From a virus (taxonomy: Duplodnaviria; Caudoviricetes), in IMG/VR virus record IMGVR_UViG_3300031555_003522, positions 64,001 to 128,000 of that record: 64,000 nt of DNA; one strand, 5' to 3'. A model generated the notes under the pieces. That model saw nothing but the letters and a program-made list of their open reading frames with translations. It was not told where the DNA came from and ran no database searches. Shown piece by piece: positions 4,879 to 44,300 of this stretch (its first letter is position 1; each line of letters starts with the position of its first letter). Position numbers and translations under genes: made by a program.

Positions 4879-5641
4879 TTAATCAAAGATGATAGGCTCT
4901 ATCATATTCTCAGGATCGTAGCCCATTGCTAATAAAGTAAGATATCGATCTATCTGATAGTCTGAGGCATAGTTAACATGTTTCATATGACCAGTTATAG
5001 GAGGGATATGCCTTAGCGTAATCTCTCCAGTTAAATTATCTCTATTTCTGAGTAAGTACACATTATCTTCGTTACAATCATATAGGGCAAAATAATCTAT
5101 TTCATCTACGTTATATACTGTTCTTTTTGGAATAGCTTTACCATGATCAAAAACATTTCCTTTGGATACTAACTGGAACAGTGTACCACCATTATCCACT
5201 CCAACACATCTAGAAGAAGATTTAACTTGTATTCTTTGCAGTTTTCCATCAAATTCAGCAACCAAATCTACCTTAGTATTATCAAGAATTGGCGTGTATA
5301 CCTGTATGCCATGTTCTGCAAATTTTCTTTATGGTAGCAACCTCACCTATTTTACCGACAAGTCCAGTATTATTTGTGCTTTTATCCACAGCCCTTGTAT
5401 CTGGTCTATACAATTCACATTGTATTGGATTTCTTTTTCTATCCTCACTAATCTTATTTCTATTTTCTAAAGACTTAGATCTGTTTTCTTCGGAATTTAA
5501 AGCCTGTATTTGATTCTGCCTTCCCTGAAATGTAACGTATTCATTTGAATACTTTCTAGCACATGTAGCTGAACAAAATCTTCCACTTCCATATGTGCCA
5601 TCATGCGGTTTTCTGCAATATTCACATATAATATCATTCAT
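4879..5641 (-). pseudogene. PD-(D/E)XK homing-type endonuclease with N-terminal Zn finger, split by a single-base frameshift near 5323
   Basis: CEYC...FCSATC finger; skipping one A in AAG AAA A TTT GCA joins the two ORFs into G.IGE...FAEHGIQVYTPILDNTKVDLVAEFDGKLQRIQVKS (PDDEXK_5-like). Confidence 0.75.
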
Positions 5642-5748
5642 ATAAATTACCTCTTTCTAATGTATTAAAAGTATATTTCAGCTATATAATATATTTATGA
5701 ATAAAAGATTAATATTATTTGTACATATTATTAGTCTTTAATAGATAC

Positions 5749-5825
5749 GGGCCCATCGCCTAGCTGGTTAAGGCCTTCTGCTCATAACAGAACCACCGCA
5801 AGTTCGAGTCTTGCTGGGCCCACCA
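5749..5825 (+). tRNA. tRNA with CAT anticodon, probably tRNA-Ile2 (lysidine, reads AUA)
   Basis: Acceptor GGGCCCA/TGGGCCC, anticodon arm TTCTG-CTCATAA-CAGAA, TTCGAGT T-loop, encoded CCA. C4:G69 and C5:G68 pairs are typical TilS determinants. Confidence 0.9.
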
Positions 5826-5852
5826 ACCCCTTTTGGGGTCCCATTTTCTTCC

Positions 5853-6035
5853 GTGGTAATACTTTTGTCCTAGACGCCCCGCGTCATCACCTGCCCAAGA
5901 TTTAATAATTTGAGCTTTTGATTGTTTATTGAGTTTTGTGATCACCTCCTATGTATCATTAAAAATTTCTTTAACAATATTTCATATATAAAAGACAAAT
6001 TCTAAATCAACTTCCATCTCTCAAAGTATTACCAC
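5853..6035 (+). ncRNA. Candidate structured RNA in tRNA trailer, with anti-SD loop
   Basis: 13-bp closing stem GTGGTAATACTTT (5853-65)/AAAGTATTACCAC (6023-35); internal hairpin with CACCTCCT in its loop; terminator follows. Confidence 0.5.
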
Positions 6036-6042
6036 AAAAACG

Positions 6043-6084
6043 AATAAGCACGGATGCTCTACCATCCGTGCTTATTTTTTTTTT
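6043..6084. terminator. Intrinsic terminator
   Basis: aataagcacggatg...catccgtgcttatt + T tract. Confidence 0.8.
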
Positions 6085-6692
6085 CATAATCCATATCTGG
6101 AAAGATGCTCCAATATATCAAATGCAAACTCAAGCATATGCTCTTTCAATATAGCATAAGATTCTACATCTTTTAATGTGTAGGATTTTTTATTTTCTAA
6201 AGCTTCTTTAATTTTTGGTCTAAATTCCACAGTACCAGCATGTGTGGTTATCATATCACCATATTTATCATGATATTCCATCTCAATAAGTGTACGAGAT
6301 AAAAACTTTCTTTTCTCGTATCCTATATCTATGTAGAAGGATATAGAAGGAAATACGATAATAGGCTTGCTCAAGTCCATAGATCCATCATCATTTAAAC
6401 TACCTATAGAACCTACATTCACTATCATAGGAAATCCATATGAATAAGATCTTGTAAATAGCTTAATTGCTTCATTATCTGTGATATATTTCATCTCTTG
6501 ATCACAGAGATTGCATGTTGCTCTTATCATACAGTCAGGAAAGTTGAAAGTAGTTGTATCAAGAATAGAATTTATAGCTGAGATTTTGGCAAAATTTGAT
6601 ATTCGTGCTTCATACTTAAGTTCTTTACCACAACATGGACATACTAAATGTGCATCCATGACCGCAGTACTTTCAATACTCTTGTTAGCCAT
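6084..6692 (-). CDS. Zn-ribbon family protein
   Basis: CPCCG...CNLC. Confidence 0.7.
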   Translation of the reverse strand: MANKSIESTAVMDAHLVCPCCGKELKYEARISNFAKISAINSILDTTTFNFPDCMIRATCNLCDQEMKYITDNEAIKLFTRSYSYGFPMIVNVGSIGSLNDDGSMDLSKPIIVFPSISFYIDIGYEKRKFLSRTLIEMEYHDKYGDMITTHAGTVEFRPKIKEALENKKSYTLKDVESYAILKEHMLEFAFDILEHLSRYGL

Positions 6693-6940
6693 CCTCCAGT
6701 ATCTCCTTTACGTTCCTTATTATATCTTTTAGAATAACGTCTAAGTATTAAATATACTATTTCTGTATTAATCTGCTTGGCGTGTACAGGATTGGGAGAA
6801 TACCAATTTTCTCCAAGTAGATAACGGCGTAGAAAATCAATGGCCGTTTCTGCATCCATTGGGGGTGCCATTATACCATAATCGTCTTGTTCATTAATCC
6901 ATTCATCGAATGTCTTATTCTTATTTTTCATATTATTCAA
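6644..6940 (-). CDS. Small hypothetical phage protein
   Basis: ORF track; co-oriented with and overlapping the next gene. Confidence 0.6.
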   Translation of the reverse strand: MNNMKNKNKTFDEWINEQDDYGIMAPPMDAETAIDFLRRYLLGENWYSPNPVHAKQINTEIVYLILRRYSKRYNKERKGDTGGWLTRVLKVLRSWMHI

Positions 6941-6996
6941 TTCCTTTCATTTTCATGTATTATTGTTTAGTTACAAGCATAATTAAGCTCCTCTTG

Positions 6997-7008
6997 AACA
7001 ATATAATA
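6997..7008 (+). promoter_or_regulatory. Late-type phage promoter AACA-N6-TA
   Basis: AACA ATATAA TA; motif recurs before about 20 units and matches the AR9 non-virion RNAP consensus. Confidence 0.7.
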
Positions 7009-7035
7009 ATTATATAGAATGTGAGGGAATCTCAT

Positions 7036-8802
7036 ATGATTTATTCATTGAGTGAAAATGTAAAATATATGAGATCTATACAGAGCCCATATGATGCTCG
7101 TAAGAGATCTTACTCTAGTGATAACCCATTTGAGAGTTTAGCATTAACCAATCCAGAATTGTTCAATGAAGCTAAACTTCAGGCATTGGAAAAAAGTAGA
7201 AATCTTGTAAAAGATTTTGATGATTATTTCGGAAAAATATTGGATGCAGATAATGCTAGGTTTAGGGAATTTGCAAAAGATAAAGGCGAAAAATGGACAG
7301 ATAAAGATCTTGATGATTATCAGGATATGTTTAACGTGTCTATACACACGGCCATGTACTCTGATTTCGAAGCATTAAAACAGACAACCGGTTTATCTGA
7401 TACTATAATAAATAGAATGATTTATAAAGCGTATATTCCTGATTCTCTTACAGAAGAGGGATGTAAAAAGCTTATAGATATCAGAATGAAACAAAGTCAG
7501 CTCCTTATAGATGCATTATATGATATGCTTGAGATGAATTATATAATGCTTGGTATAGATGCCGGACGGGCTAAAGATCTCTCTAAGAAATTAGGAGATC
7601 CAAAAACATCAGATAAAGCTATAGGTGATATAAAATCTGCATTATCTAACCCAAAAACGTTAGAAAAATTTAGAATGGGTCTTAGTAATTATGACTTTAG
7701 ACCCATTGGTGGTGCATGTGTATTTATTGCGACTGGATTAGATTTATCTTCTGCTAATCCAGTAAAATATATACCCAATCTATTTAAGTATGATGCTATT
7801 GTATTTGGCCATGGTCAATATAGTAGAAATGAGAGGCCTTATACTCCTTTAGGAATGTGGGTTAAAAATGTAAAAGATGTGCTTAAAAAGATACACATGT
7901 ACATGGATGGACTTATCAAACTTTCTAAAGAATACGAGGGAATTATTAGTGATTCTTTGAAGTCTGATATATCTACATTAAAGTTTTATATAGATGGACT
8001 TCTCTCTAAAAAACTATATGAAAATGATATTGTAGAATTCAGAAATAGGGTTGAATCTCTATTAAATAAAATGATAGAAGAATCTACCCATATTTCTAAT
8101 ATAGAGCAAAGAAGTAAACTAATAAGATATATAGATATGATAGATTATGCCTATCAACCCATCATTAGTAGACTCGATATAGATCAAGCAAAGATGGATG
8201 GGAAGGCTGCTACATGGGTAGTACAGCCAGTGTCTACTTTAGAGCATCAGAATCTAACTCATATTGTAGATATTGTAAGAGCCCTTAAAAAAGAAGGATT
8301 TAAGAATATCCTAATTAATTCTTGTAATCCTGGAGGGGTAAAACTACCTAAAGATATCATAGATGATCCATCAATAACAGTCACTATGGGAAAATATAGT
8401 GTACTTAAAGAAACTTCTATTATCTTTAATGAAAGTTTTGAAGGCATTAAAACTAAGATAAAGAAAGCTGTAAATTCTGCAAAAGAAGCTATAGGAAGAA
8501 TTACTGGAAACTGTCGTAAACTAATAAAAAATATAAGCGATGTATTAAAAGATACAAAGAAGAATTGCTTTAAAAATGTAGAATTTACTTATATCGCTGT
8601 TAGCGGAACAAGAGCTAGAATTGTAAAAGATACTTATGATTCTACATCTATTCTTGAGAAACAACTAAATAATTCGAGTAACACTATTATTGGATTAATT
8701 GAGCGTCGTCTTAAAGATGATGTAGAATATTACGGTCGGCTTGAAAAAGTATCCAATAATTCAGTTAATGAAAATCCTTTCTCTAATATCAAATTTAAAT
8801 AA
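7036..8802 (+). CDS. Large hypothetical protein, likely virion internal protein (MIYSLSE leader)
   Basis: Long ORF, late promoter, leader motif shared with other late genes. Confidence 0.65.
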   Translation: MIYSLSENVKYMRSIQSPYDARKRSYSSDNPFESLALTNPELFNEAKLQALEKSRNLVKDFDDYFGKILDADNARFREFAKDKGEKWTDKDLDDYQDMFNVSIHTAMYSDFEALKQTTGLSDTIINRMIYKAYIPDSLTEEGCKKLIDIRMKQSQLLIDALYDMLEMNYIMLGIDAGRAKDLSKKLGDPKTSDKAIGDIKSALSNPKTLEKFRMGLSNYDFRPIGGACVFIATGLDLSSANPVKYIPNLFKYDAIVFGHGQYSRNERPYTPLGMWVKNVKDVLKKIHMYMDGLIKLSKEYEGIISDSLKSDISTLKFYIDGLLSKKLYENDIVEFRNRVESLLNKMIEESTHISNIEQRSKLIRYIDMIDYAYQPIISRLDIDQAKMDGKAATWVVQPVSTLEHQNLTHIVDIVRALKKEGFKNILINSCNPGGVKLPKDIIDDPSITVTMGKYSVLKETSIIFNESFEGIKTKIKKAVNSAKEAIGRITGNCRKLIKNISDVLKDTKKNCFKNVEFTYIAVSGTRARIVKDTYDSTSILEKQLNNSSNTIIGLIERRLKDDVEYYGRLEKVSNNSVNENPFSNIKFK

Positions 8803-8888
8803 TAATACAGGTAGGTCATTATGACCTACCTGTTTGATTTTTACATAATTTTAAACTTTTTAATAATCTATTGAAGGGGGTATTTATT

Positions 8889-9356
8889 ATGGAAATACAT
8901 CATAGTGATGATTTGGGAAGAAAATATAATCATATGCTTTTTAATGCTTGTATTTCATATTTTATAAGCATAATTACATCTATACTTTATATTGATTGTA
9001 CAATTAATGGATATTATGCTGCTGGGTTTATGATTAATTCTGCAGGTATTGTCTTAGTATCCAAATTCATTCTACATATGTATGAATATTTTATAGCGGC
9101 TTTTAAATACACTGAAAATGTGAGATACAGTGGAGGGGTACATAGATATATTAGTATATTTCTGTTAGCTATTAATGGAGTTTTTTATATTATCTCACTA
9201 ATTAATTATAGAATGAGTTTTGATAGTTCTATTAATAATACAGAAGAAGAGTTATTTATCACAATAGCATTTTGTATGTGGACTTTTGTAATTTACTCTA
9301 CTCTGGATAAGGTAAATTCTAGAGTGGAAGAATATATTAAAATGATTAAGGGTTAG
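8889..9356 (+). CDS. 4-TM membrane protein, hypothetical
   Basis: Hydrophobic segments; promoter AACT-N6-TA at 8854-8865. Confidence 0.7.
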   Translation: MEIHHSDDLGRKYNHMLFNACISYFISIITSILYIDCTINGYYAAGFMINSAGIVLVSKFILHMYEYFIAAFKYTENVRYSGGVHRYISIFLLAINGVFYIISLINYRMSFDSSINNTEEELFITIAFCMWTFVIYSTLDKVNSRVEEYIKMIKG

Positions 9357-9380
9357 GGATTATATCCCTAACCCTCTTTT

Positions 9381-9938
9381 TTATCTACTATAATACTTTA
9401 TTCTATTTTTAAGACGATTTGCCTCTTCACGATATTTTGTTTTAAGCTCTTTATCATCAGTTTTGTCTGCTTTATCTCTAAGAAGCTTAACCATATCTTC
9501 TGCTTCGGATTTACATTTCTTAAATTCTGCTGTATCTATAGCTAGTCTAAGAAGTCTATCTATAAGTTTAGTAATAATGAAACCGATCATCCAAAGCAGC
9601 CAACCCTTAATACTAAAAGGAGCGAATGGGGCAATAGCATTAATATATACAAAAAAGTTTCCAATTGTTTCTACAACATCAATACCAATGCTAAGAATAT
9701 CTAAAATAATCTGAATTGCTCTTTTACCGAAATTCATATATTTATTTAGATCTTTAGATAATTCTTCATCAGAAAGATCTACAGAATCTTTGACTTTTTG
9801 CATGGCCTTCTTTAGACCTCTATAGTCATTACCCTCTTGAAGGAAATTATTTAGAAACCAATCAAACTTGGCTCCTTCATTGAGAGTGATTATATTATCA
9901 TTAATAAATTCTACTTCATTAAAAATACCATAATCCAT
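9381..9938 (-). CDS. Putative virion protein with hydrophobic hairpin, paralog of 18758-19429
   Basis: Shared EGAKFD...EG.DY.GLKK...KR..Q core; promoter 9966-9977 (-). Confidence 0.75.
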   Translation of the reverse strand: MDYGIFNEVEFINDNIITLNEGAKFDWFLNNFLQEGNDYRGLKKAMQKVKDSVDLSDEELSKDLNKYMNFGKRAIQIILDILSIGIDVVETIGNFFVYINAIAPFAPFSIKGWLLWMIGFIITKLIDRLLRLAIDTAEFKKCKSEAEDMVKLLRDKADKTDDKELKTKYREEANRLKNRIKYYSR

Positions 9939-10047
9939 AGTACTTTTCACCTCTATTTATAATATTATTAATTTGTTAAATAATGGTATTAAAATTGTCA
10001 ATATATACAAAAACTTAAACTAAAAGGTAAAAAGGAGGTATTATATA

Positions 10048-10482
10048 ATGAAATCTTATATCAAATTATTTATTTTATTAATTCTTTTTATGGCATTTAT
10101 ATCTATTATACTTGTAGGAATTATGCTATTAGGAGAAGGAACAATGGATAGTACTTCATGGAGAAGTACATCTATTTATACCTGTTGTGTAACTAGTATT
10201 ATTCATTTTATAACAGATTGGATTTATAAAGAATCTAAGAATAAAAATAGTAAGATAAAAATAACTAAAAAAGTTATAAGTCTTACATTTTTAATCTCTA
10301 TGTATATTCAAATAATTAGTACAATTTATATATGCTTTGGAGCATGGAAATTGTTTGGATCAATACATCCAATAGAATATTTTTCTGTAGCGATATTCTT
10401 ATTGCTAAGTATATATTCTTTTAAAAGAGCTTCATATACATTAATTGGTAGGGGTGGAAAAAATAATGGAAAAGAAGAATAA
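10048..10482 (+). CDS. 4-TM membrane protein, hypothetical
   Basis: SD aggagg; hydrophobic segments. Confidence 0.7.
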   Translation: MKSYIKLFILLILFMAFISIILVGIMLLGEGTMDSTSWRSTSIYTCCVTSIIHFITDWIYKESKNKNSKIKITKKVISLTFLISMYIQIISTIYICFGAWKLFGSIHPIEYFSVAIFLLLSIYSFKRASYTLIGRGGKNNGKEE

Positions 10483-10921: not shown

Positions 10922-11196
10922 TGGCTGATAATGAAAATATCGAATTAGTAGAGCCAATCATTTTTTCAGATCCGTTAGAACAGTTCATATCGCGAAGATT
11001 AACAAAAATTCAATTGGTTGGTCTCCGTAAAATGAAAAGATTAACCCAGAAAGAGGTATCGGAAGCAACTGGATTATCCGTTCAGTGTATTTCAGATATA
11101 GAGAATGAAGATGGAGGTAACCCGACACTCAAGAGTATGATAAAATATCTTGATTGCTTGGGTTATGAAATGGTATTTCAGAAAAGGAGTGTATAA
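10921..11196 (+). CDS. XRE-family helix-turn-helix regulator
   Basis: LRKMKRLTQKEVSEATGLSVQCISDIEN...NPTL. Confidence 0.9.
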   Translation: MADNENIELVEPIIFSDPLEQFISRRLTKIQLVGLRKMKRLTQKEVSEATGLSVQCISDIENEDGGNPTLKSMIKYLDCLGYEMVFQKRSV

Positions 11197-11198
11197 TT

Positions 11199-11894: not shown

Positions 11895-11941
11895 ATTCTA
11901 TTCTAAAGAGATATTATAGAACTGAAAGGAGGAAGATTTCT

Positions 11942-12991: not shown

Positions 12992-13000
12992 GGTGAAGTT

Positions 13001-13306: not shown

Positions 13307-13393
13307 TTAATCACCATCTTCTTTTTTTGTTATTTGGGTCATTTCTATCTAACCTAACATTATACTAATTATAGGAAAGGAGCGCAAATCTCT

Positions 13394-13534: not shown

Positions 13535-13535
13535 T

Positions 13536-26931: not shown

Positions 26932-27648
26932 ATGCTAATTATGGATAATAATTATATAGTCCAAGCATTAAATAATATAGATATTATCCTTGATAATAAA
27001 ACAAGCCTATATCAAAATAGTAGTGGACAAACTGTAGCTAGAGTTACAGAAATAATTTCATCGATGATACATAGCGATGGACTTATGTATTGGGCTAACT
27101 CGCTTGGCTTTAAGGGCATAAGATATAAAGATGAATTAAATAGAGCAGCAGAAGCTGGAACTATTGCACATGCAGCGATAGAAAAATTCTTAAAAGAAAA
27201 AATATGTACAGAGAATAATATTCCATTTCAAGGGTTTAAGCTCTGGTATAATATTGTCACTGAGGATATAGGGTTACCTATAACTGTGATTTATGTAGAG
27301 CATACTCTAGTGTGCAAATGGTTTGGAGGAACACTAGATGCTTTACTTATGATAGGAAATAAAATATATCTTGTGGACTTCAAAACAAGCAATCATGTTA
27401 CTTATAGGTACTTTATACAACTAGGTGCTTATAGGCATATGCTTAGAGAGGTTGAAGGTATTGAAATAGACGGCGTAATTGTATTACAGCTAGATAAAGA
27501 TGAGCCTGGTTTTAATGAATATCTTCTAGATTTTTCAATTATGAATCATTTAGAATTTATGAATAGATGTGAGCATACTTTCTTATCCCTTGTATATGCA
27601 TATTATAACGTCAAAAGGATAGAAGGAGAATTCAAAACTTTATTTTGA
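26932..27648 (+). CDS. PD-(D/E)XK exonuclease (RecB/Cas4-like)
   Basis: GT.AH, E, GTLDAL, VDFKTS, QLGAY motifs. Confidence 0.85.
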   Translation: MLIMDNNYIVQALNNIDIILDNKTSLYQNSSGQTVARVTEIISSMIHSDGLMYWANSLGFKGIRYKDELNRAAEAGTIAHAAIEKFLKEKICTENNIPFQGFKLWYNIVTEDIGLPITVIYVEHTLVCKWFGGTLDALLMIGNKIYLVDFKTSNHVTYRYFIQLGAYRHMLREVEGIEIDGVIVLQLDKDEPGFNEYLLDFSIMNHLEFMNRCEHTFLSLVYAYYNVKRIEGEFKTLF

Positions 27649-31004: not shown

Positions 31005-34000
31005 ATGGTGGCGAGATTCTTGAACTTAGAAAGAAGAGCAAAATATTCAGGTCAAGGATCTTCGGTTGTTAAATCAAATAAACGACTTGATATAAACCTT
31101 GATCTGCATACGTTAGAAATAATGTGTAAATGTCTGGTTACAGATAGCCAGAATATAAGACGTGGACAATTAATTAATTTAAGAAATTTAATTTATCTGA
31201 TAAATCCAGATAATTATATAAATGATGCCGAAAAGAATAAAAGAATCGATTTTATTAAGAAAGGTCTCGAGGGGCGACTCGAGTTCAATCTTACAGATCC
31301 CTTTATGATATTGTCTCATATAAATGGAGGCATACTGGATACAGATATAGTAAATCTAGAAGAATTTGCTGGACTTACTGGAGCTGAAATAAACTGGATG
31401 AATAATATGGTTTCGGAAGCTCTTAAGTTTTCTCATGTTTATTCTAGCGTAGATATGCTATTAGATATCTGTACCAGAATAAAGACATCTGATTATGGAA
31501 CAAAAGCTGCTATAGTTGCTGAATTTGAGCAAGCAATAAATGCTATTCAGAATAATTTTAGAAGATGTAGAAACCAGAATCAGACTCAAGAAATGTTCAG
31601 TTTACGTGATGGGTATTTTGAGAATGTGATGTATGACACATACTCAGCTCTTAGTAGTCCTAGACGTAAGCTTATGACTGGTATGCAAGGTATGAATGAA
31701 CTTCTCGGTGGTGGATATGAGAATGGACGTTGTTATGTCTATTTCGGTCTGCCTGGTGTAACCTAACGGTAATCACAGCTTGTATAGTAATATGCAAGTT
31801 CCCCGGGTTAACTGCTGGCAATCCCTAAAGCCTTAAGCACTACAACGTGATCTGAAAAGATGAGCGTGAATGTTACGAAAGTAGAAAAAAGCTTAAGGAT
31901 GGACTATGGTTAAATCCTAAGGTCTAACTCGACAAATGGGTCTTCAGCAGCCAATCACTTGTAAAATAGTGAAGGTTCAACGACTATCCCCTGGCAGGGG
32001 AGTAAAACCGCAAGCTAATGGCGGAAGAAAAATCCGGCTCCTTTATAAAGTCACCCATTTATAAAGGATGAATATATAGTCTATACACTATTGAAAAATA
32101 GTGGTACCCTATGGTGACAGAAGGTACTCTTATAAAGTTGCGTTTATAAGAAACTATCAATATCTAACGTAATTTAATCAATATATTCTCTCTAACCTTT
32201 CATTAATTCTATATGATGAAAGGAGGTGTAAAACAGATGGCTCAAAAATGTAAAGCCAATTCTGATAATTTGCGCGGTCATAAAGTTAGAATATATCCTA
32301 CTGAAGAGCAAAAGGATAAAATACTATCTTTTATAGATTCATATAGAGCTATTTATAATATAGCTATTGGGTCTCAGATAGATTATTATCGTTCTGGCGG
32401 AATATTTATTACATTTAATCAAATGTGTAAGAAATTTGCCGATATGAGAAATAATAATGAGAATTTCAAATGGCTAAATAATATGTCTATAGGAATTATA
32501 AGAGAAGCTTTAATAGATGCTGATGTAGCATTTACAAAATTCTTTGCTAAGATTAATAGATTTCCTAAATTTAAGTCTAAGAAAAGATCTAAAAAATCAT
32601 TTGGAACTAGATCCGATAGGTGTCATATCGATGGAAGAAATATTTATATATCAGGAGTAGGTTTGGTTGATGCTAAAGATCATCATATTCCAGAAGGGGT
32701 TAGAATGTATAAAACCAGAATAACTTACGACGGATATGATAAATTTTGGTTTTCATGTACAACCGAAAAAGATATGGAATTTCTTCCTATTGAAGGATTA
32801 GGTAAGCCTATAGGTGTTGATGTGGGTATAAGACACATGATAACAACATCGGATGGCGAAGTTTATGAACTATCAAATTTTTCGAAATTAAACAAAAGAC
32901 TTAAACAAAAAACGCGAAGAGCTATGCGCTCTATGAGGAAATATATAAATCAATCAAAACGTACGAAAATCAAGTATGAGGATATACCAAAATCTAAGAA
33001 TCACTATAAACGAATGAAAGAATGGGTTAAGATTAGTAATCGTATAGAGAATAAAAAATCTTATGATACTAATGTGGCTACTAGACGTATAATAGATAAA
33101 CATCCTTCTGCTATTGTAATAGAGGATTTGTGTTTATCTAAAATGCGAAAAAGAAATTGGATGAAGAAATTCGTACCACAAATAGTATTTAGAGATATAC
33201 ACAGACAATTGGAATATAAGGCTGCTGAATTAGGTATACCTGTAATAAAAGCAGATCGATTATACCCATCATCACAATTGTGTAGTAATTGCGGTTCAAT
33301 ACGTAAACTTAATTCTTCCGTTTATAAATGTAAAGTTTGTGGATTACGGATAGATCGTGATCTGAATGCTGCTATAAATCTTAGAAATTTGGCATATAAA
33401 AATGCATATGTTTAGTTTGCATATTACCACTTTCGGTGGATAGTGATATAATGTAAAAAGAATATATGTACCGTGCACTATACACGGGAGTTAAAGCCTT
33501 TGGAGAGCCTCGTACCACGAAATTTATCTAAATTTTGTGGCCGACATGTACTCGCGATATATGTTGGAGGGGTTCTGTGAATTAGGAAATCATACTTAAC
33601 ACGTACAATAATTACGTTAGAAGTTGATATATAGAAGGCAAGTCGAGCACAATGATGAATATCTTATATCAGTTAAAGAAGTATAATCGTGACTATAAAA
33701 CAAAAGACCCGACGAAGAGACCATGTATCGTATTATTGACAATGGAGAATACAGTTATAGAGTCTATTGATCGACTCTTTAATATGGCTACAGGTCATAA
33801 GAGGATGACGGATTACTCTCCTGAGGGAGCAATGAGAATGTTCAGAGAAGAGGGTGAGCTATATCTAACGGATGAATCTCCGATAGATATCATCATCAAA
33901 TTTGAACCTTCTAATTCTGTGGACACAAGTTATCTATATACTCTTACCGAAGATCTTGAAGATCAAGGTATGGAAGTAATAGCACTATTCCAGGATTATA

Positions 34001-34632
34001 TTGGCCGTATTCGTTCAACTGAACGGCTCCAAGAAACTCGTTTGGAATATGGTGCAATTGTTGATGAGTTTAAAACATTTGCTGAGATTAAAGATATTCC
34101 TGTAATAACTGCTGCTCAGCTAAACAGAGATGCTTCTAAGCATATAGATGAAGGTCGTAAAGCCAGTAAGTCCGATCTTGTTAGACTTATTGGTAGATCT
34201 AATATTAGTGAGTCTATGTTGATCCTGAACAATATCGATGCAGGATTCCTGATAGCTCCAGAAACTACTCAAACAAATGAAAGATATCTTGGTGTACAAA
34301 GAATAAAAATTAGATATGATGCTGGAGATAGAGAATTTGTATACTTGCCATTTGTCGGCGATACACTAAAGCTAGAGGAAGATTTTGGAAGGGTTGCCGT
34401 ATTTAAGACAACTATGAAAAATGATCCCTTTGGTGGACAAATTGGCACAAATAAATCTCAGTATCAAACTAATACAATTATGGATCTTGGCCAGGTTATG
34501 AGATCTTCCGGAAATGAGAATAATATGTTCTCGGCCAAGGTCATGAGTGGATCTATGGATACTTTAGCAAATAAAAGTTCCATGGTATTCACAGAACTTG
34601 TTGAACCAATTATATTCGATGATGTTGTATAA
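31005..34632 (+). CDS. dnaB: DnaB-like replicative helicase, spliced (exon1 31005-31758, exon2 33635-34632; about 583 aa)
   Basis: Joining the exons restores Walker A GLPG-EGKS; downstream LTMEN, QDYIG and AAQLNR DnaB motifs. Confidence 0.9.
32237..33415 (+). CDS. tnpB: TnpB RNA-guided endonuclease (IS200/IS605/IS607 OrfB)
   Basis: RIYPTEEQ HTH, FPKFKSK, GVDVGI, IEDL, SSQLCSNCG..CKVCG, DRDLNAAINL; RuvC D-E-D triad intact. Confidence 0.95.
   Translation: MAQKCKANSDNLRGHKVRIYPTEEQKDKILSFIDSYRAIYNIAIGSQIDYYRSGGIFITFNQMCKKFADMRNNNENFKWLNNMSIGIIREALIDADVAFTKFFAKINRFPKFKSKKRSKKSFGTRSDRCHIDGRNIYISGVGLVDAKDHHIPEGVRMYKTRITYDGYDKFWFSCTTEKDMEFLPIEGLGKPIGVDVGIRHMITTSDGEVYELSNFSKLNKRLKQKTRRAMRSMRKYINQSKRTKIKYEDIPKSKNHYKRMKEWVKISNRIENKKSYDTNVATRRIIDKHPSAIVIEDLCLSKMRKRNWMKKFVPQIVFRDIHRQLEYKAAELGIPVIKADRLYPSSQLCSNCGSIRKLNSSVYKCKVCGLRIDRDLNAAINLRNLAYKNAYV
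33416..33634 (+). ncRNA. Putative omegaRNA scaffold downstream of tnpB
   Basis: Stacked hairpins and the TGTACCG..CGGGAGTTAAAGCCTTTGGAG...GTGAATTAGGAA pattern typical of tnpB right ends. Confidence 0.65.
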
Positions 34633-35231: not shown

Positions 35232-35699
35232 ATGAATGACTTTGATAAGGAAATCAATCTCAAAATCATGCAGGAACTGGGTTTAGAGCCCAATAGACAC
35301 AGACAATTAATAGATCAAGATTCTGGAATGGCTATTGCTATTAATGGCATGCCAGTAATGGCTCCTGGTTATTATGGTGGTCGCAACTCTATTGAATTTG
35401 ATCCGTATAATAATAAAAAGATGATGAATCAGTTATTCGGTCTTTTCTTAGAAAAATATGCCGATGAAAATGGCGTAAATGTATCTGCTTTCTATAATAT
35501 CGATGGGAAAGATAATTCTGGTCGAGTAGAATGTAAGTTTAGTGATAATCAGACAGTTACATCTGAAAGCTATTCTAGGGATACTTTAAAGTATGTAGAT
35601 ATAGTTATGCAACTTAATGGAGATAGCAGATGTAGCGAAGATCTTCGTAAATATGATATTGTAGAAAAGAAGCAAGCGGTTAGAGCAAAAAGGGGTTAA
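35232..35699 (+). CDS. Hypothetical protein
   Basis: SD gaggt. Confidence 0.65.
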   Translation: MNDFDKEINLKIMQELGLEPNRHRQLIDQDSGMAIAINGMPVMAPGYYGGRNSIEFDPYNNKKMMNQLFGLFLEKYADENGVNVSAFYNIDGKDNSGRVECKFSDNQTVTSESYSRDTLKYVDIVMQLNGDSRCSEDLRKYDIVEKKQAVRAKRG

Positions 35700-35702
35700 G
35701 CT

Positions 35703-36911: not shown

Positions 36912-36921
36912 GTGGATTTAT

Positions 36922-37509
36922 ATGTCTAATGAAGATAAAAAGCTAGTACAACCTATTATATTTAATGATGAGAATACTAGCAAACAAGACGAAAATGCTA
37001 AACTTATAAGACCAATAATTTTCGATGCCCCGACTAAGGACGTTGAAGAAAAGACGTATATCATTCTATACAATATAGATCCAGAAGATGATATGGATGA
37101 AATATATAGTAGAATTTTCTCTGTATGTATAGGAAGAACAGATGCATATTTCGATATTAAAGAAAAATTAACCTCTGGACTTGGCGTGAATATTTACACA
37201 TCTAAAGTTATTACAGAGACTAAGCAGACTGAAACAGAGAGTGGGGATACGAAGTATTATCTTCTTCCTTATGATGAATGTGTGAATATTTATGCATTCT
37301 GTACTGGTATCCAATCATTTTATGGAGAAGATGGTTTTGATATAAATGATTATGTCAATAATGGTTCTCCCGATGATAAGGATGATATGGAGAATAATAC
37401 ATTCTTTCTAACTCCAGAGCAGAAGGCTTATAGAGCTATGATAGATGAAGCTATGAATATGCGAAGAAGTACTAATAACCCGCAGTCTAATGACAATCCT
37501 ACTGTATAA
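36922..37509 (+). CDS. Acidic hypothetical protein with two N-terminal PIIF motifs
   Basis: LVQPIIFND and LIRPIIFD. Confidence 0.7.
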   Translation: MSNEDKKLVQPIIFNDENTSKQDENAKLIRPIIFDAPTKDVEEKTYIILYNIDPEDDMDEIYSRIFSVCIGRTDAYFDIKEKLTSGLGVNIYTSKVITETKQTETESGDTKYYLLPYDECVNIYAFCTGIQSFYGEDGFDINDYVNNGSPDDKDDMENNTFFLTPEQKAYRAMIDEAMNMRRSTNNPQSNDNPTV

Positions 37510-37598
37510 AAATAATATAAGATTTGATCATATATTATTTATATGAAAACTATTAAAGTTTATTATGAATATCAAATACACATAAGGAGAATCAAATT

Positions 37599-38012
37599 AT
37601 GGGAAACAATAATAACAAAAATAAAAAACGTAGTATGCCTAAGAATCCTGATCCATTGTCCAATGCTAAGGTAATGGGCAGAGAGGGCATGAAAATGATT
37701 CGTAATATCGCATTTGGTAATTTCAACTTTTATAACGAGGGACATGTGTTCCGTAATCCTGATTTTGTCAGAAATATCATAATTGAAGTGGATAAGAGAA
37801 TTCTTGATGCTAGTATTCATCTTACTGCTTTAAATTATGCGTATCCTGGAACAAATGAGCCGAGTGTACTTGGTTTGATCCATAGAGATACGAAGACTTA
37901 TGAAGGATACATGCTTGTACGACAGGTTCTTGAAGGTATTCTGAAGACTGGAGACACACGTCTTCTTTATACACTCATGACCAAATTGCCTGAGTATAAG
38001 TACAATATGTAA
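37599..38012 (+). CDS. Hypothetical early protein
   Basis: Early promoter 37531-37546, SD aaggag. Confidence 0.7.
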   Translation: MGNNNNKNKKRSMPKNPDPLSNAKVMGREGMKMIRNIAFGNFNFYNEGHVFRNPDFVRNIIIEVDKRILDASIHLTALNYAYPGTNEPSVLGLIHRDTKTYEGYMLVRQVLEGILKTGDTRLLYTLMTKLPEYKYNM

Positions 38013-38100
38013 CATTTTAATAAGAGCAATGGACATAGGGCTTGGCTCTATGTCCATATTTCTTTATTATAATTATCTTTTTTTATAAGGAGGAAAAATA

Positions 38101-39438
38101 ATGGATGCTAAACAGATCCAACTGTTAAAGGAAACACATATGCAGGAAGTAGAAAAGGAAGATGGTACTAAAACTACTCTTGGTGCATATATGCGTTTCT
38201 GCTTAGATGGCGGTATTGATTTTGTAACATCTAAAGATCTCGTTGTCTTTGATGATGCAAATAATATGCTGCATTGTGTTGCTGTTAATGAAGATGGTAA
38301 ATCTCAGTGCAATTATCCTGTTAAGGTTATTAGCACAGACTATGGTATCGTACAGCAGGTAGAATCTATCTATAGTCAGAAGGACTTCGAAAAGGCTTTG
38401 AATAGTGGATTCCTGAAGGATGTTGTAAGTGAAGAAAAGCGCAATGCTATGTTGGCTTGGTCTCGCAATATTCGTAATCAGGCCATTCAGCCCAGTCGTC
38501 CTACTCCCTACTATACCATCGACCCCACTATTATACCTATGGGTAATACATCTATGCCTCGTGTAGATGGACTTACTGGTACGACTGGTAATTCTGCTCC
38601 TGTAATTCGTTCTGCATCTTCTGCCGCAGAATTGACCAAACTGATGAGTAGCGGTTCTTTGAAATCTGGAGATAGCATTGTTGTTGATGCAGATGTTGTC
38701 TTTGATGAAGATTTCACATTCAAGGGTGATGGTATTACCCTACGTTCCAATGGTGCCACTTTCAATGGTGTATTGACTGCTGAAGGTAAGGATATCAACA
38801 TTACTGGATTTAACTTCGCATGTACAAATGATGAAACAGATGCATATGCGGCAAAGGGCACAGCAATGGTTAAGATCGATGGTACTGCTACTATTACTGG
38901 TTGTACTTTTAAGCCCACTGGTAAGTACTATAATGCTATCAATGCTAATGGTAATCTGACTCTGGAGTCTAATAACTTTGAAGCTTGTGAAGATAACGTA
39001 TACAATCTGATCGAGTTCTCTCAGAGGGAGGACCAGAAGATTGCTAATGTAGAAATCTCTTACAATACGTTTGCTAAGGGTGCTTCTAAAAATAATACAA
39101 TTAGCATGTTCCAGTTCGAGGATGGTGCAACAATCAATATCCTCAATAACATTTGGGATTATGCTGCTAATGCTATTCGTATCAGTAATTATAGTAAGGC
39201 TATTGGTGTCATTATCAACTGCGTGGATAATGAATACAAGGAAACTTCTGAAGATGAATATGCTGGATTCTTGCTTGCTCAAGGTACCGAACAGAATAAG
39301 GATATGTCCGGTATTACGGTTAATCTTATCCGTCTGGTTGGCCCCAATGGTAATACTGTTACCAAAAATGGTACTGGTAATGATCAGGTCTGGTATACCT
39401 ATGGTACAGAGGTTGACCCTGTCGTTAAGTTCCATTAA
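38101..39438 (+). CDS. Protein with C-terminal right-handed beta-helix (pectin-lyase-like)
   Basis: Repeating I.GC.F / L.SNNF / I.YNTF strands; late promoter 38011-38022. Confidence 0.65.
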   Translation: MDAKQIQLLKETHMQEVEKEDGTKTTLGAYMRFCLDGGIDFVTSKDLVVFDDANNMLHCVAVNEDGKSQCNYPVKVISTDYGIVQQVESIYSQKDFEKALNSGFLKDVVSEEKRNAMLAWSRNIRNQAIQPSRPTPYYTIDPTIIPMGNTSMPRVDGLTGTTGNSAPVIRSASSAAELTKLMSSGSLKSGDSIVVDADVVFDEDFTFKGDGITLRSNGATFNGVLTAEGKDINITGFNFACTNDETDAYAAKGTAMVKIDGTATITGCTFKPTGKYYNAINANGNLTLESNNFEACEDNVYNLIEFSQREDQKIANVEISYNTFAKGASKNNTISMFQFEDGATINILNNIWDYAANAIRISNYSKAIGVIINCVDNEYKETSEDEYAGFLLAQGTEQNKDMSGITVNLIRLVGPNGNTVTKNGTGNDQVWYTYGTEVDPVVKFH

Positions 39439-39709
39439 TACTTTACTAGAAAATGAACTAACTAATACATGTAGGGGTTTATGCCCCTACATGTATATAC
39501 TATTTTGCCAATCTATTTATTGTTATATTTTACTAGACTAAACGCAAAAATAACGATATAATATATTGGTGACCTCAGTATAAAGGGCGGATGTTTTCAT
39601 CCACCTTTTCATTATTAAATTATATCCCTAGCAACAAATTTATAATGGAAAAGTGATGTTTATATCTGATCCAAAATAAAATTCAAAATCATTATTAGGA
39701 GGAACAAAC

Positions 39710-40576
39710 ATGAACAACGCACAGTTTTATCCCAACAACGCCTACGCAAATCCTTATGGCGTCAACTACGCTGTCCCCGCTAAGCCCCAGGCGAAGAATG
39801 GCCAGCCTCTGACTCAGGAAGAGATCAATCACCTGAGATCTATGTCTGGTGCTGAAACTCTTGATATCAAGATCAGCACTGATGACGTTCTGATCGCTAA
39901 GTGTACTCACCGTGAGAAGAATGGCACAGATTCCCTGGTTAACCTTGGTGGTGACCGTTGGCGCTGCACGATTTGTGGCCAGGAGTTCAACATGTTCAAT
40001 GGAACCGTCGAAGAAGTCACTAATGCTGTTGGTACCATTATTGATATCCTGCAGACTTCTAAGTCCATCTATCGTGATGCTCCGGATAGCTTGACCGGCC
40101 AGTATTATCAGCTGATTCCTCTGCTGAAGAAGCTGCCCAACGTCTTCCAGGCATCTCTGAACAATTTCTCCAAGTATGAAAATTGGCAGCAGGCTCCCGA
40201 ATTCACTGCTAATGGCTACTATCCCGGCTTTACCGCTATGCATAATCTGTTGACCGGTCAGTTCATGCCCGGCATGGCTCCTGGCTATGGCTATCAGCAG
40301 CCCGCATACGGTTATCAGCAGCCCATGATGCAGCCCATGCAGGGTGGTTATGCACCTAACCCTGTTGTGACTCCTCAGCCCACTGCTGGTTATTATCAGC
40401 AGCCTGTGATGCAGCAGTACGATCCCAGCGGTAATCCTCTGGCTTACGGTGCTCCTGTTGCTCCTGCACCCGTAGCTCCCGCTCCTGGTGCAATTCCCGC
40501 TGCTCCCGTAGCAGCACCTGCAGCTGCTCCCGCTGCTCAGTCTGAGGTTCAGCAGACAGCTGTCTTCAATGTGTAA
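39710..40576 (+). CDS. Zn-binding protein with Q/Y/P/A-rich disordered C-terminus, probably highly expressed
   Basis: CTH...CTIC; strong C-ending codon bias; early (39557) and late (39633) promoters. Confidence 0.8.
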   Translation: MNNAQFYPNNAYANPYGVNYAVPAKPQAKNGQPLTQEEINHLRSMSGAETLDIKISTDDVLIAKCTHREKNGTDSLVNLGGDRWRCTICGQEFNMFNGTVEEVTNAVGTIIDILQTSKSIYRDAPDSLTGQYYQLIPLLKKLPNVFQASLNNFSKYENWQQAPEFTANGYYPGFTAMHNLLTGQFMPGMAPGYGYQQPAYGYQQPMMQPMQGGYAPNPVVTPQPTAGYYQQPVMQQYDPSGNPLAYGAPVAPAPVAPAPGAIPAAPVAAPAAAPAAQSEVQQTAVFNV

Positions 40577-40724
40577 GATTTAGCTAAATCCTATACAATG
40601 AAATAATACCTAAAGAGGGTAGAAGAGAAATCTTCTACCCTCTTTCTCTTTCATATGTATATTTCATTTTTCCTTTTATTTGTATATTATTAATATGACG
40701 AAAATAAAGGAAGGAGATAACTCC

Positions 40725-41273
40725 ATGCAAAAGATGAAAGTATATAGAATTGAATTGTGTGATAGAGGTAATTCAATAACTTATGAGCCTTATATCCCAA
40801 AGAGTGTTGCGCATTATGAGGATCATCATACTCCTCGTATTCCATGTGCACCTACAATATTAGGATGCTTAAGATCACTTCAGATCACCCAAAATCCCGA
40901 TATAGATAAACATCAACTCGATAATCACTATGTAAACCTATATTTATATGAGGCATATGTAGATGTAGAATTTCTTCATGCGCCTACAGAAACAGAAGTA
41001 TTTGATGCTTTCTTTACAGGAGAGTTATGGATACTAAATACAGATATCACTTTCTTTAAAGTAAGTGAGTATAGAATTAGAAAACATATGGAACTTCCTA
41101 ATTGTGCCTATAATAGATATGCTATTACTAGAGCGGATGGAGATGAGGTTCTTGATATGATAGCCACAGCTGCAGTATACGGAGATGAAACTACTTTTAG
41201 TTATATCGACTTTGATCCTGATCGTGCAGCTTCGGCTAGAGCTTATGCGGAGACTAATCAATTATATCCGTAA
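40725..41273 (+). CDS. Hypothetical, possibly ADP-ribosyltransferase-like
   Basis: VYR...P.IP...ED..TPRI...GCL...TGELW pattern; early promoter 40683. Confidence 0.45.
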   Translation: MQKMKVYRIELCDRGNSITYEPYIPKSVAHYEDHHTPRIPCAPTILGCLRSLQITQNPDIDKHQLDNHYVNLYLYEAYVDVEFLHAPTETEVFDAFFTGELWILNTDITFFKVSEYRIRKHMELPNCAYNRYAITRADGDEVLDMIATAAVYGDETTFSYIDFDPDRAASARAYAETNQLYP

Positions 41274-41352
41274 TCTTATAGTCTCCAAATAGCCTAATAA
41301 CAACTAATTAAGCGTTGTAAGACGTAAAACTACGAAAGGTGGAAGTATTAGA

Positions 41353-44300
41353 ATGGCTAAGCCTACTAAGAATAATGAAGCCACAAATTTTGAAGAAAGC
41401 ATTCGTAGTTATGGTGATAAGATCGAACACATTGATACCTTTGTAGAAGCTGTGCGCCGATTCCCGGGTATGTATATCGGTGCAAAAAGTGATACTGGTT
41501 GGAAGGCATGTGGTCGAGAAATTTTCCAGAATGCTGTTGATGAGATTATCCGTGTAGAATCTCCTTGTCACTACGTAAAGATGAGTTTTGATGAAAGAAC
41601 TCAAGCTGTGGTAGTAGAAGATACTGGACGCGGTATTCCTCATGGTAAAATTATTGAAATCTATGCTAGTCAGCATACTAGTTCTAACTATTCCAAGAAA
41701 CCCGGTGAGTATACATCTGGTGTTCATGGTGTTGGCTCTGGTGTTGCTATGGCATTATCAAAATCTTTTGATATCTATTCGTACGTGCTTGGTGAAGCTA
41801 GGCATGTACATTTTGATTCTGGTGTATTATGGCCTGAAGGGGAAAAGGTTATTCCTTGTCCTGAGGGCAGACAGGGAACTACTGTTGTCATGACACCAGA
41901 CCTTGATGTATTAGACGAAGTAAATCTTACTTGCGAAGATTTCCTTGATCTAGTATTGAAGGTATATCCTCTTGTCAATGTCGGTGATAGAATAGATTTT
42001 ACCGGTATTGATAGAGATGGTAAAATCAAGTATCAGGAAGAATTAGTGAATAAGGATGGTATTATATCATCTCTTATGGTTAGAACTCAAGCTCCTCTTG
42101 TAACACCAGTACAGTTTAAAGATGATACTGGTTACATGAAAGCTGAGATCGCCTTCACTTATGACTCAAGTGATTTAACGTCTGTAGAAGATATTGTAAG
42201 TTATGCAAACTTTACACCTACAACTGGCGGCACGCACGTTGCTGGTTTTATGGATGGTGTGTGTAACTTCTTCCGAAACTACATGAACAAGATTTATCTT
42301 GGTGAGAAGTCTAAAGTTTCTGTGGTAAATAATGATGTCAAGACAGGTCTTAAAGTCATTATTGCAGCTGCTCATCTGAATCCTGTATTTGCGGGTCAGT
42401 TTAAGGGCATTCTGTCAAATGAAGATATGTATAAATATATCAAAGATCTGACTATGAAATCTTTGGAAGAATGGTCTAAGACGAGTCCTGGTGATTTGCA
42501 AAAGATTTGCAAGTTCATCAAGGAGATTGCTGAGATACGAATGAAGAGTGATGATAGTAAGATCAAGCTATCTAATAACTATGAAGCGAGTTCTCTTACT
42601 GGTAAGCCAAAGAAATATGTCCCACCCTCTGGACATAAAAATCTGGAGTTGATTATTGTAGAGGGTGATTCTGCATTAGGTTCTACTAAGAATAGTAGAG
42701 ATACTGCAACGCAAGGCGTATTCCCTGAAGTGGACGGGGCATTGACTAGTAATAGTCAATCGTAAACTTCCTTAATTGCTGGGATGCTAAGTATTATATG
42801 AAAGCCTTAGAAACTTTTATATAATATATGCTAATCAGCAGCCAAGTAGAAATCGGAAGTGATGCACTATGTATAATCCAATTATCTTTAATAATGAAGA
42901 GTTTAAAGATATAGTAATTCCAAATGTTAAACCGATATATTCTGTAAGCAATTATGGTACTATAATTAATAAAATAACCGGTGAGCAGATTAGCATGCAA
43001 ATTACAAGTGATGGATATTTAAGAGTGGGTTTATCGTGTTTAAATGGTAATACCAAACACTTTCTTGTCCATAGATTAGTATTAATGGCATTTTGTCCAA
43101 TACCTAATCCTGAATCGTTCGAGGGAAATCATCTTAAAGGAATAAAGATAGATAATAGGGTAGAGGAATTAGAGTGGACAACCACGTTAGAGAATAATCA
43201 TCATTCTTTTGATACGGGGTTGAATAATAATATACGAGAAAATCATGCAAAAGCTAAACTCACCAATGATCAAGTTCATTTAATATGTCAATGCTTAGAA
43301 AAAGGAATGACTATTAAAGAGATAGAACCTTTGATTATAGATACAGGATGTATAGATCTTGGAAGAAATATAAGAGCTATACGAGAAAGAAAAGCATGGG
43401 TTACTATAAGTAAGGATTATTCGTTTAGTAGCAGAAACAATAGAGATATGTTTTGTGATGATGAAGTTAGAATTATCTGTAAAATGATAGAAGCAGATGC
43501 CGGATATAAGAATATTTTAATATCATTAGGAATAGATATTTCTACTTTATCTTCAAAAGAGCTAGCAAATTATTGTGATATAATAAGTAATATTAGAGTG
43601 GGTAAATATTACTCAGATATATCTAAGGATTTTGATTTTTCAAAATCAAAGTTATTTAGACATGACCAAACTTTAGATAATGATAAAATAACTAAAGTGT
43701 GCAAATGTTTAGAATCTGGTATGAGTAGTACTGAGATACTAAATAAGCTTAATATATCAAAAGAATCCGTAGGTTATGAGAAATATGATAAAAGTCGACG
43801 GATTATAAATAAAATTAGAGCTAGAAAAGCATTCATTTCAATCTCTAAAGATTATGATTTCTAAAGGTTCAACGACTATCGAAAGGTATCTTATGATGAA
43901 CCGAGTAGAGTAGAACTCAAGCGAGTTTCGAAATGGGAAGGATCCATATAAATGGATCGTGATATAGTCTCATCTGTATGGAAACATACAGCAGTTCATA
44001 AGAGAACGGTATAGAAGTAGCGACTCTATATGAAGATATTGATCCGTGGTAAGTTGCCTAATGCATTTAAAACATCTAAAACATCTTTCTTAGCAAATCA
44101 AGAAATTGCTTCCATTATCACAATTATTGGTTGTGGATATGGTAAGAATTTTGATATAACTAAGTGTAAATTCGATAAGATAATTTTCTTAGCAGATGCG
44201 GATCCGGATAAGGTTGTGAGCTGTCCGGCTTAATAGAAATATTAAGAAAATAACTCTCTTAATTGCTGGAATATCTTAAAAATTGAGACAATCAGCAGCG

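Follow-up and report, generated by a model that had tools for sequence, protein, structure and literature searches.

The DNA analyzed here, called the window, is a 64,000-nucleotide stretch (bases 64001-128000) of the 207,861-bp viral contig IMGVR_UViG_3300031555_003522. Its G+C content is 34%, and the contig is 84% complete by CheckV. Genes in the window encode a PD-(D/E)XK protein, an XRE regulator, a DnaB-like helicase, a 195-aa protein and a NUMOD4-HNH endonuclease, all of which carry near one terminus a short peptide built around Pro-Ile-Ile-Phe (PIIF). This peptide, with its variants, is referred to as the tag, and the 195-aa protein, which has two copies, as the two-tag protein. The helicase, the non-virion RNA polymerase (nvRNAP), the DNA polymerase, UvsX, the ligase and about 40 other proteins showed 25-40% identity to those of Bacillus phage AR9/PBS1, and likewise to those of Staphylococcus S6-like, Listeria LPJP1 and Yersinia phiR1-37 phages. 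Judged from these matches, the source is an uncultured AR9-like jumbo phage. Whole-genome counts were based on the 225 proteins called on the contig, which is termed G000. An IMG/VR scan with DnaB gave five loci, and three whole relatives were then compared: G001 (224 kb), G002 (221 kb) and G003 (238 kb, 97% complete). The whole genome of AR9 (NC_031039.1) was used as the control without the tag.

The initial annotation had reported six PIIF copies on five proteins. All six were recovered by a six-frame scan (Table 1). Each copy lies beyond the Pfam-defined domain of its protein, in agreement with the claim that the tags sit on termini outside folded domains. Codons vary among the copies (CCT ATC ATC TTT, CCA ATC ATT TTT, CCA ATT ATA TTC and others), as had also been claimed, so the repeat is at the protein level and not at the DNA level.

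Expected counts were obtained from 200 composition-preserving shuffles of the proteome. PIIF was observed 9 times against 0.88 in the shuffles, and [LM][VIY][EQRN]PIIF 8 times against 0.01; none of the 200 shuffles attained either count. All eight strict copies lie no more than 31 residues from a protein end. Permuted words of the same residues (FIIP, IPIF and others) and other P-phi-phi-F words, phi being a hydrophobic residue, occurred 0-2 times each. Ranked by the number of different carrier proteins, PIIF was the top over-represented 4-mer; the other enriched 4-mers (TEEE/EEWL, AWKG and AQGH) are tandem repeats within single proteins, not shared tags. The relaxed form P[IM]xF was found 31 times in G000 (11.4 expected), and [EQNSR]P[IM]xF 20 times (2.9 expected). 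Within 60 residues of a terminus lay 22 of the 31 relaxed copies, against an expectation of 39% (P = 3e-4). The same terminal bias gave P = 2e-7 in G003, and 5 of 15 copies (P = 0.85) in the AR9 control. Position-specific counts gave L, [VI], [EQN], P, I, x and F, with acidic residues after the Phe.

An AT-rich genome, with 9.2% Ile and 4.4% Phe in its proteome, might be expected to produce such words by chance or composition, and a repeated DNA element might spread them. This explanation is already refuted. It is contradicted by the shuffles, by the lack of enrichment of permuted words, by the differing codons, and by orthologs, described below, that keep the positions of the tags; recurrence of genome-specific tags on the same terminus excludes chance, composition and DNA repeats alike.

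The five proteins first named do carry the motif, which was an undercount, because late RNA polymerase, DNA polymerase, ligase and helicases bear it too, in relaxed form. Carriers of the relaxed form were identified by mapping onto AR9. About 15-20 otherwise unrelated non-virion proteins that handle DNA or RNA bear the tag, sometimes in two to four copies. The beta C-half of nvRNAP has a 75-aa C-terminal tail, outside the window, which holds LIQPITFTD, GSPIIFQH and EIIPIDFLS (three to four copies). Two copies are present in the beta' C-half, a tag stands at the N-end of the beta' N-half, and the beta N-half has a PVLF variant. The DNA polymerase N-half has two copies, and the NAD ligase has the tag in an N-terminal extension. 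Further carriers of the relaxed form are a superfamily 2 (SF2) helicase, a SprT/zincin-like protein and a 265-aa protein of no known family; zinc-finger proteins are also among the carriers. The tagged tails extend past the homology with AR9: the beta C-half has 752 aa vs. 666 aa in AR9 gp088, which is without the tail, the beta' C-half 739 vs. 632 aa, and the SF2 helicase 506 vs. 478 aa.

Table 1. Tagged proteins, tag copies, receptor candidates and the split DnaB gene. Coordinates are those of the window unless marked "genome".
Feature	Coordinates	Strand	Remarks
PD-(D/E)XK (PDDEXK_5) protein, 128 aa	4879..5265	-	C-end tag; G000 only, no ortholog in G001-G003; Pfam match residues 2-105
Tag MIEPIIFD-stop	4882-4905	-	C-end of the PDDEXK_5 protein
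XRE/HTH_3 regulator, 91 aa	10921..11196	+	N-terminal tag; G001 ortholog has LIEPMVFLD at the same place; HTH_3 domain 35-84
Tag LVEPIIFSD	10945-10971	+	residues 9-17 of the XRE protein
DnaB-like helicase, exon 1	31005..31757	+	ends within Walker A (..YFGLPG); tblastn match to residues 2-250 of the intact 585-aa G001 DnaB
IStron-like insert in DnaB, ~1.9 kb	31758..33633	+	group I intron core 31764-32103 (RF00028, 60.6 bits), then TnpB gene 32213-33415
DnaB-like helicase, exon 2	33634..34632	+	begins EGKS..; ends in tag LVEPIIFDD-VV; divDNAB match 2-234 of 326
Tag LVEPIIFDD	34597-34623	+	4 residues before the end of the DnaB C-part
Candidate, 155 aa, no family	35232..35699	+	always upstream of Dda-like helicase; untagged; 4/4 genomes; no AR9 homolog
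Two-tag protein, 195 aa	36922..37509	+	two N-terminal tags; ERH-like core
Tag LVQPIIFND	36943-36969	+	N-terminus of the two-tag protein
Tag LIRPIIFDA	37003-37029	+	N-terminus of the two-tag protein
Candidate, 137 aa	37599..38012	+	basic N-tail; conserved ..YKYNM end; always adjoins the two-tag gene
Candidate, 445 aa	38101..39438	+	N-domain (~1-130) conserved; C-part varies: beta-helix-like in G000, acidic tail in G003
Receptor/scaffold candidate, 288 aa	39710..40576	+	CxH...CxxC zinc-ribbon core; ~140-residue Tyr/Gln/Gly/Pro/Ala-rich region; conserved ..EVQQTxxFNV end
NUMOD4-HNH endonuclease, 331 aa	42869..43864	+	inside group I intron of the GyrB-like topoisomerase gene
Tag MYNPIIFNN	42869-42895	+	start of the HNH protein, directly before its NUMOD4 domain (10-56)
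229-aa protein, no family assigned	47184..47873	+	G000 only
Relaxed tag NMEPISFEE	47757-47783	+	31 residues from the C-end of the 229-aa protein
Candidate, 298-aa helical protein, no family	60275..61171	+	always directly upstream of UvsX-like recombinase
nvRNAP beta C-half, gene start	63075..64000	+	752 aa; continues beyond the window
Strict tag LINPIIFNR	genome 136582-136926		N-end of a 114-aa zinc-finger protein, outside the window
Strict tag LVEPIIFFD	genome 201340-201519		C-end of a 59-aa protein, outside the window
Further candidate	genome 140119-141093	-	
Further candidate	genome 162260-163084	-	
Further candidate	genome 189092-189766		
Further candidate	genome 195132-195932		266 aa
Further candidate, C-domain	genome 173598-175472		624-aa protein

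The form of the tag differs between related genomes, and each genome has its own dialect: P-I-x-F in G000, P-M-x-F in G001 and G002, and N-P-F-x-H in G003. De novo word statistics brought out PMIF and IEPM in G001, INPM in G002, and PFIH, NPFI and PFEH in G003, where PFIH was observed 15 times against 0.16 expected. By number of proteins, the top 4-mers were PIIF in G000, PMIF/IEPM in G001 and PFIH/NPFI in G003; none was comparable in AR9. In at least 12 ortholog families across the four whole genomes, the same terminus was tagged in the genome's own dialect. Examples, given in the order G000, G001, G002 and G003, are the C-end of DnaB (LVEPIIFDD, LIEPMIFYN, not found, IINPFIHVA); the C-end of the SF2 helicase (LEQPIEFDI, MIQPMEFAD, LIQPMIFMN, IINPFVHI); the beta' C-half (LYEPITFID, FYEPMIFFE, VIEPMIFFE, IIDPFIHIE); one of the two tags of the two-tag protein (LVQPIIFND, LIEPMIFDE, TINPMEFFR, SINPFVHMT); and the N-end of the NUMOD4-HNH protein (MYNPIIFNN, MLIQPMIFEE, MYSPIEFIE, NMNPFEHER). 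Among 51 homologs of the two-tag protein, the core is near-invariant (..ITETKQTET..) and the tags differ by lineage, including forms with Ala or Gly in place of Pro.

The claim that selfish endonucleases carry the motif was borne out. The NUMOD4-HNH protein starts in the local dialect in four of four genomes, and the G000-specific PD-(D/E)XK protein has a perfect local tag as its C-end. Two more G000-only genes, for the 229-aa and the 59-aa protein, likewise carry perfect local tags. The initial annotation had staked the motif on its frequency against a shuffled background, its terminal enrichment and its presence in orthologs, and all three were upheld. Because the dialect changes in step across a whole genome, one shared receptor is indicated. 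The pattern is that expected if about 20 peptides fitted a single pocket that changes, whether by drift or because it is driven to.

Homologs of AR9 virion proteins have no dialect-following tag. A conserved ..QPIMFTV end on one virion protein ignores the dialects and is thus a separate thing. UvsX, the Dda-like helicase, primase, both topoisomerase subunits, SbcC, GroEL and the sigma-like nvRNAP subunit are also untagged. In the whole AR9 genome no tails and no shared or enriched terminal word were found; its orthologs are shorter and stop where homology stops. No tag was seen in the nvRNAP beta C-half tails of S6 and LPJP1. The DnaB-like helicase of AR9 (NC_031039.1 3583-5268, L006) ends in ..EKDSGIPF, resembling the C-terminal tip DDDIPF of single-stranded DNA-binding protein (SSB). 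AR9 may use another terminal handle where this clade has the P-I-x-F tag. Some untagged proteins have ends that are invariant across dialects: ..VNYPDIVENRY in a 390-aa zincin-like protein (L019:10782-11954), ..LPxYKYNM in the 137-aa protein (37599-38012) and ..FNV in the 288-aa protein (39710-40576). Such ends suggest additional docking peptides that have conserved partners and are separate from the tag that varies by dialect.

Terminal, hydrophobic and disordered peptides are typical of degrons and of chaperone-binding segments, and the phage encodes GroEL. The tag might on these grounds be a protease or chaperone signal, either a degron or a handle for folding or assembly, for example by the phage GroEL. 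This is improbable. AR9 has GroEL too, but no tags, and no homolog of the AR9 gp082 AAA+ protease was found in G000. Very small proteins (59-114 aa) are tagged, and multiple copies on stable multi-subunit enzymes, together with strict dialects, are ill-suited to promiscuous chaperone binding.

The tag has the properties of a short linear motif. It is short with few fixed positions (phi-phi-x-P-[IM]-x-F), it lies in disordered tails outside domains, it recurs above chance in unrelated proteins, and it is kept in orthologs. Its consensus, L-[VI]-x-P-I-x-F with acidic residues behind it, is a genuine motif of the docking type and, judging from sequence, would bind a pocket of a partner protein, which the in-step change of dialects supports only indirectly. 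With a probability of about 0.6, one common, co-evolving and probably phage-encoded receptor concentrates the tagged enzymes at phage DNA. All tags would dock into this receptor, and co-evolution of its pocket would produce one dialect per phage lineage. Enzymes of replication, repair and late transcription would be gathered on one platform on or around phage DNA, as by clamp client tails. Mobile nucleases and newly acquired genes would gain access by taking on the local tag. We infer that the receptor is single, phage-encoded, DNA-associated, specific to this clade (gained after the split from AR9) and not a canonical clamp. The proposal of the initial annotation, a short linear motif on a shared phage hub, stands as far as terminal position, protein-level conservation and dialects that change in step as one hub predicts; the hub was not found.

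The two-tag protein was modelled with AlphaFold from a 29-sequence alignment (mean predicted local distance difference test, pLDDT, 70.5). Residues 1-35, which hold both tags, had pLDDT 47-52 and are disordered, and residues 40-150 form a confident alpha/beta core. The best Foldseek match of the core was ERH-2 (E = 0.034). In an independent all-against-all alignment (VIA), the top six matches were ERH-family chains, with Z 5.1-7.0 and a root-mean-square deviation of about 3 Å over 76-79 residues, at 6-12% identity. The resemblance of the model to ERH is moderate and at the fold level, and it does not reveal a function. In the model neither tag docks on the protein's own core, and the core is near-invariant while the tags vary. 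For these reasons the two-tag protein is unlikely to be the receptor, and from the model we read it as a bivalent client or cross-linker, which would be tetravalent as a dimer. Searching IMG/VR and the JGI metagenomes with the two-tag family yielded six loci, too few for covariation of the family against dialects.

Several results weigh against a common phage receptor. No receptor emerged from the searches. No clamp or clamp loader was detected in the four genomes or AR9: PF00712, PF02768, PF02916 and PF00705 had no match at E <= 10; a divergent clamp or the host clamp could still be involved. The annotation of AR9 lists no clamp, clamp loader or SSB, and BRCT (PF00533) matched the AR9 ligase only. 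As the contig is incomplete, the receptor gene could be missing; yet the nearly complete G003 shows none either. Several DNA enzymes are untagged, so not every protein that acts on phage DNA needs the tag. A host-encoded receptor would likewise explain lineage-specific dialects.

Such a receptor could be the beta sliding clamp, SSB or another conserved host hub, and the dialects would then reflect host taxa. The clients are of the sort that clamps have, yet no phage clamp was detected, and a change of host would readily explain why about 20 tags changed in step. Motifs that bind clamps are found at either end of proteins, as the tag is. The tag fits neither QL[SD]LF nor Qxx[LM]xF, however; what is conserved is Pro, the next residue, and Phe or His two later. 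P-I-x-F, N-P-F-x-H and the Ala/Gly variants are hard to reconcile with the very conserved pocket of the beta clamp. AR9, S6 and LPJP1 infect Firmicutes and are without tails. A host hub is therefore considered rather unlikely.

Since AR9 lacks the tails, receptor candidates were sought among proteins without an AR9 homolog. To pass the filter, a protein had to occur in each of the four genomes with the tag, carry no tag itself, not belong to the virion and have no AR9 homolog, even in profile comparisons. Pfam and PHROGs were run on about 40 proteins to cull the candidates, and about 10 were left after those with recognizable function were dropped (Table 1). A 238-aa protein (26932-27648) was dropped as a Cas4-like exonuclease, the 390-aa protein as zincin-like with a remote AR9 homolog, and a 246-aa protein as HNH-like and itself tagged in G003. 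PDB sequences searched with profiles of four candidate families gave no match. Together with the two-tag gene, four candidates make up a conserved block that lies between the genes for the Dda-like helicase and the GyrB-like protein. It is kept as a unit in G003, at another position, and in a further lineage, L063. The zinc-ribbon core, low-complexity region (predicted to be disordered) and ..FNV end of the 288-aa protein are kept in G001, G002, G003 (L056:16779-17720) and L063. Its AlphaFold model (pLDDT 41) was too poor for a fold search, with residues 1-35 and 148-288 below pLDDT 50. From its sequence the protein could be of SSB type or condensate-forming, the low-complexity region being Sup35-like.

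The 266-aa protein (L019:14132-14932), upstream of GroEL, has an SSB-like layout: its core is conserved, its linker is rich in Ser, Asn and Gly, and its tip (..SLEDIE) is acidic-hydrophobic. At least 161 homologs, well conserved, were found in about 160 lineages. A weak atlas lead to Whirly single-stranded DNA-binding proteins (score 0.83, family on 13% of members) was not confirmed by Pfam or PDB profiles. Because the protein is very conserved across dialects, it is disfavoured as a dialect-specific receptor. The 624-aa protein (L018:10598-12472) belongs to the early region and has the tagged SF2 helicase on one side and the tagged 265-aa protein on the other. Its N-part, about 330 residues rich in Gln, Pro, Thr and Glu, is disordered, and its C-domain of about 230 residues (..FTIDTGxIIDRR..) is conserved. 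The protein has no family match.

The low-complexity protein of the conserved block bears on another explanation. The tag could be an address label for entry into, or retention in, a replication compartment or condensate built by the phage, comparable to a nuclear localization signal and not a tether to a DNA-bound platform; lineage-private dialects would then be a barrier against foreign DNA-acting proteins. Almost every client has to get to the DNA. Among the clients are homing nucleases and small regulators of the XRE and zinc-finger kinds, which would gain little from a processivity platform. Virion proteins are untagged, and several clients have multiple tags. The clade-specific block beside the two-tag gene encodes a Tyr/Gln/Gly/Pro low-complexity protein of the kind that drives condensates, and other proteins rich in intrinsically disordered regions are present. 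AR9-like phages are related to nucleus-forming phages, but they are reported to be without chimallin (PMC13282480). In line with this, phmmer searches of the 225 proteins with phiKZ gp54 and gp69 detected no chimallin or PicA homolog (best E 0.33 and 0.5, in a single-sequence search only), which also counts against the common phage receptor. Import in chimalliviruses reads surface residues of folded cargo and not a terminal signal (PMC12908238). UvsX, the Dda-like helicase, primase and topoisomerase, which also act on DNA, are untagged. No compartment has been seen in this clade, and no shell protein is known. An address label of this kind is possible but doubtful. In a more specific form, the tags would be the address code of a chimallin-independent compartment for replication and transcription, built by genes gained after the AR9 split. 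Candidate builders would be the zinc-ribbon protein at 39710-40576 and its neighbours, with the ERH-like dimer as a multivalent cross-linker. The dialect would serve as a password against foreign nucleases and the enzymes of rival phages, stolen by homing endonucleases. This form, too, is regarded as a tentative minority view.

Two genes of the window are interrupted. The open reading frame (ORF) of DnaB looks truncated because an IStron-like insert splits the gene. The insert has a 5' ribozyme core, a downstream TnpB gene with Cas12f1-like_TNB, HTH_OrfB_IS605 and OrfB_IS605 domains (Pfam), and an ORF restorable by predicted splicing, with the exons abutting exactly at GLPG|EGKS of Walker A. 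The same arrangement was found at the same site in the distant lineage L063 (DnaB parts 3543-4298 and 6124-7182, TnpB 4746-5939), and DnaB is intact in G001-G003. The insert is not part of the tag system. The GyrB-like topoisomerase gene (41353-45526) is in at least three pieces (41353-42765, 44030-44233 and 44519-45526). A group I intron core lies within it at 44208-44430 (94 bits), and the tagged HNH gene separates the first piece from the second.

Other features of the genome were also recorded. A tRNA gene (RF00005, 57 bits) lies at window positions 5749-5822 on the + strand, amid a block of minus-strand genes. At window positions 2-1852 (L015:8522-10852), a 776-aa protein joins an SF2 helicase, with ResIII and Helicase_C domains, to five Myb-like repeats that bind DNA (WTEEEDNILRENYPKIG..); neither G001-G003 nor AR9 has an ortholog. 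Genome positions 204672-206072 (L020:6672-8072) encode a thymidylate synthase of the ThyX type (Thy1, E = 6e-31); the gene is kept in G001-G003 and was not found in AR9. For this reason, the clade may not share the uracil-DNA of AR9/PBS1.

No published description of a genome-wide, lineage-private tag was found in the searchable literature on AR9/chimallin and jumbo-phage linear motifs. Hub docking motifs are well known. Not described there is a lineage-private tag spread over replication, repair and the phage's own multisubunit RNA polymerase, in phages without a recognizable clamp or nucleus. New in this analysis are the four-way ortholog evidence from whole genomes, the absence from AR9, the ERH-like bivalent protein and the receptor shortlist. 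If one receptor gathers these enzymes, it would be a new organizing principle for replication and transcription in jumbo phages, in a clade that has neither a recognizable clamp nor a chimallin nucleus. The code would be readable from sequence alone and would sort proteins without an assigned function into those acting at phage DNA and those not. Mobile endonucleases would be seen adapting to the address system of their host phage, and the private dialects would be a natural experiment in co-evolution of a hub with about 20 clients. A 9-residue peptide would be a direct handle for finding the receptor.

The tag was compared with known docking systems. Polymerases, ligase (human Lig1, through an N-terminal PCNA-interacting peptide (PIP) box), nucleases, the SprT-like protease Spartan and small regulators compete for one clamp pocket. 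The client list found here mirrors these clamp clients in its polymerase C-tail, ligase N-extension, nucleases, SprT-like protease and late transcription. As with beta-clamp motifs and PIP boxes, the tags are short motifs on the disordered ends of similar clients. Unlike them, the tag has no conserved Gln and no aromatic pair, and it does not fit the PIP pattern Qxx[LIM]xx[FY][FY] any more than the beta patterns; Pro, +1 and +3 are conserved, the dialect shifts between close relatives, and no beta/PCNA domain was found. The SSB tip is similarly an acidic-hydrophobic terminal peptide that serves as a handle of the replication and repair network, but with reversed polarity, since the SSB hub bears the peptide and its clients the pockets, and here the clients bear the peptide. 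ERH proteins are small dimers that bridge partners via short peptides. The two-tag protein is like these adaptors in its folded core, for which they are the best structural matches, although the match is middling and the protein carries peptides rather than, as far as shown, binding them. Import by PicA/Imp1 in chimalliviruses is likewise a selective, species-specific sorting of DNA- and RNA-handling proteins from virion and metabolic proteins, but it recognizes the surface of folded cargo (PMC12908238), whereas the shared feature here is a linear peptide at a protein end. The tails by which T4 gp43, gp33 and gp55 bind the clamp can replace one another and tether these proteins to gp45 (PMC2988020). 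The tag resembles these T4/RB69 tails as a short hydrophobic terminal peptide common to DNA polymerase and the late-transcription machinery. It differs in that no gp45-type clamp or loader was detected in this phage, in its position at both N- and C-termini in up to four copies, and in its presence on about 15-20 proteins, including regulators and homing nucleases. The pattern phi-phi-x-P-I-x-F is also unlike the T4 tails, and it marks halves of RNA polymerase core subunits rather than accessory factors. No defining feature of the sliding-clamp client family was confirmed for the tag. By analogy, the best reading is a docking motif that probably works like the tails of sliding-clamp clients, with a different, clade-specific receptor.

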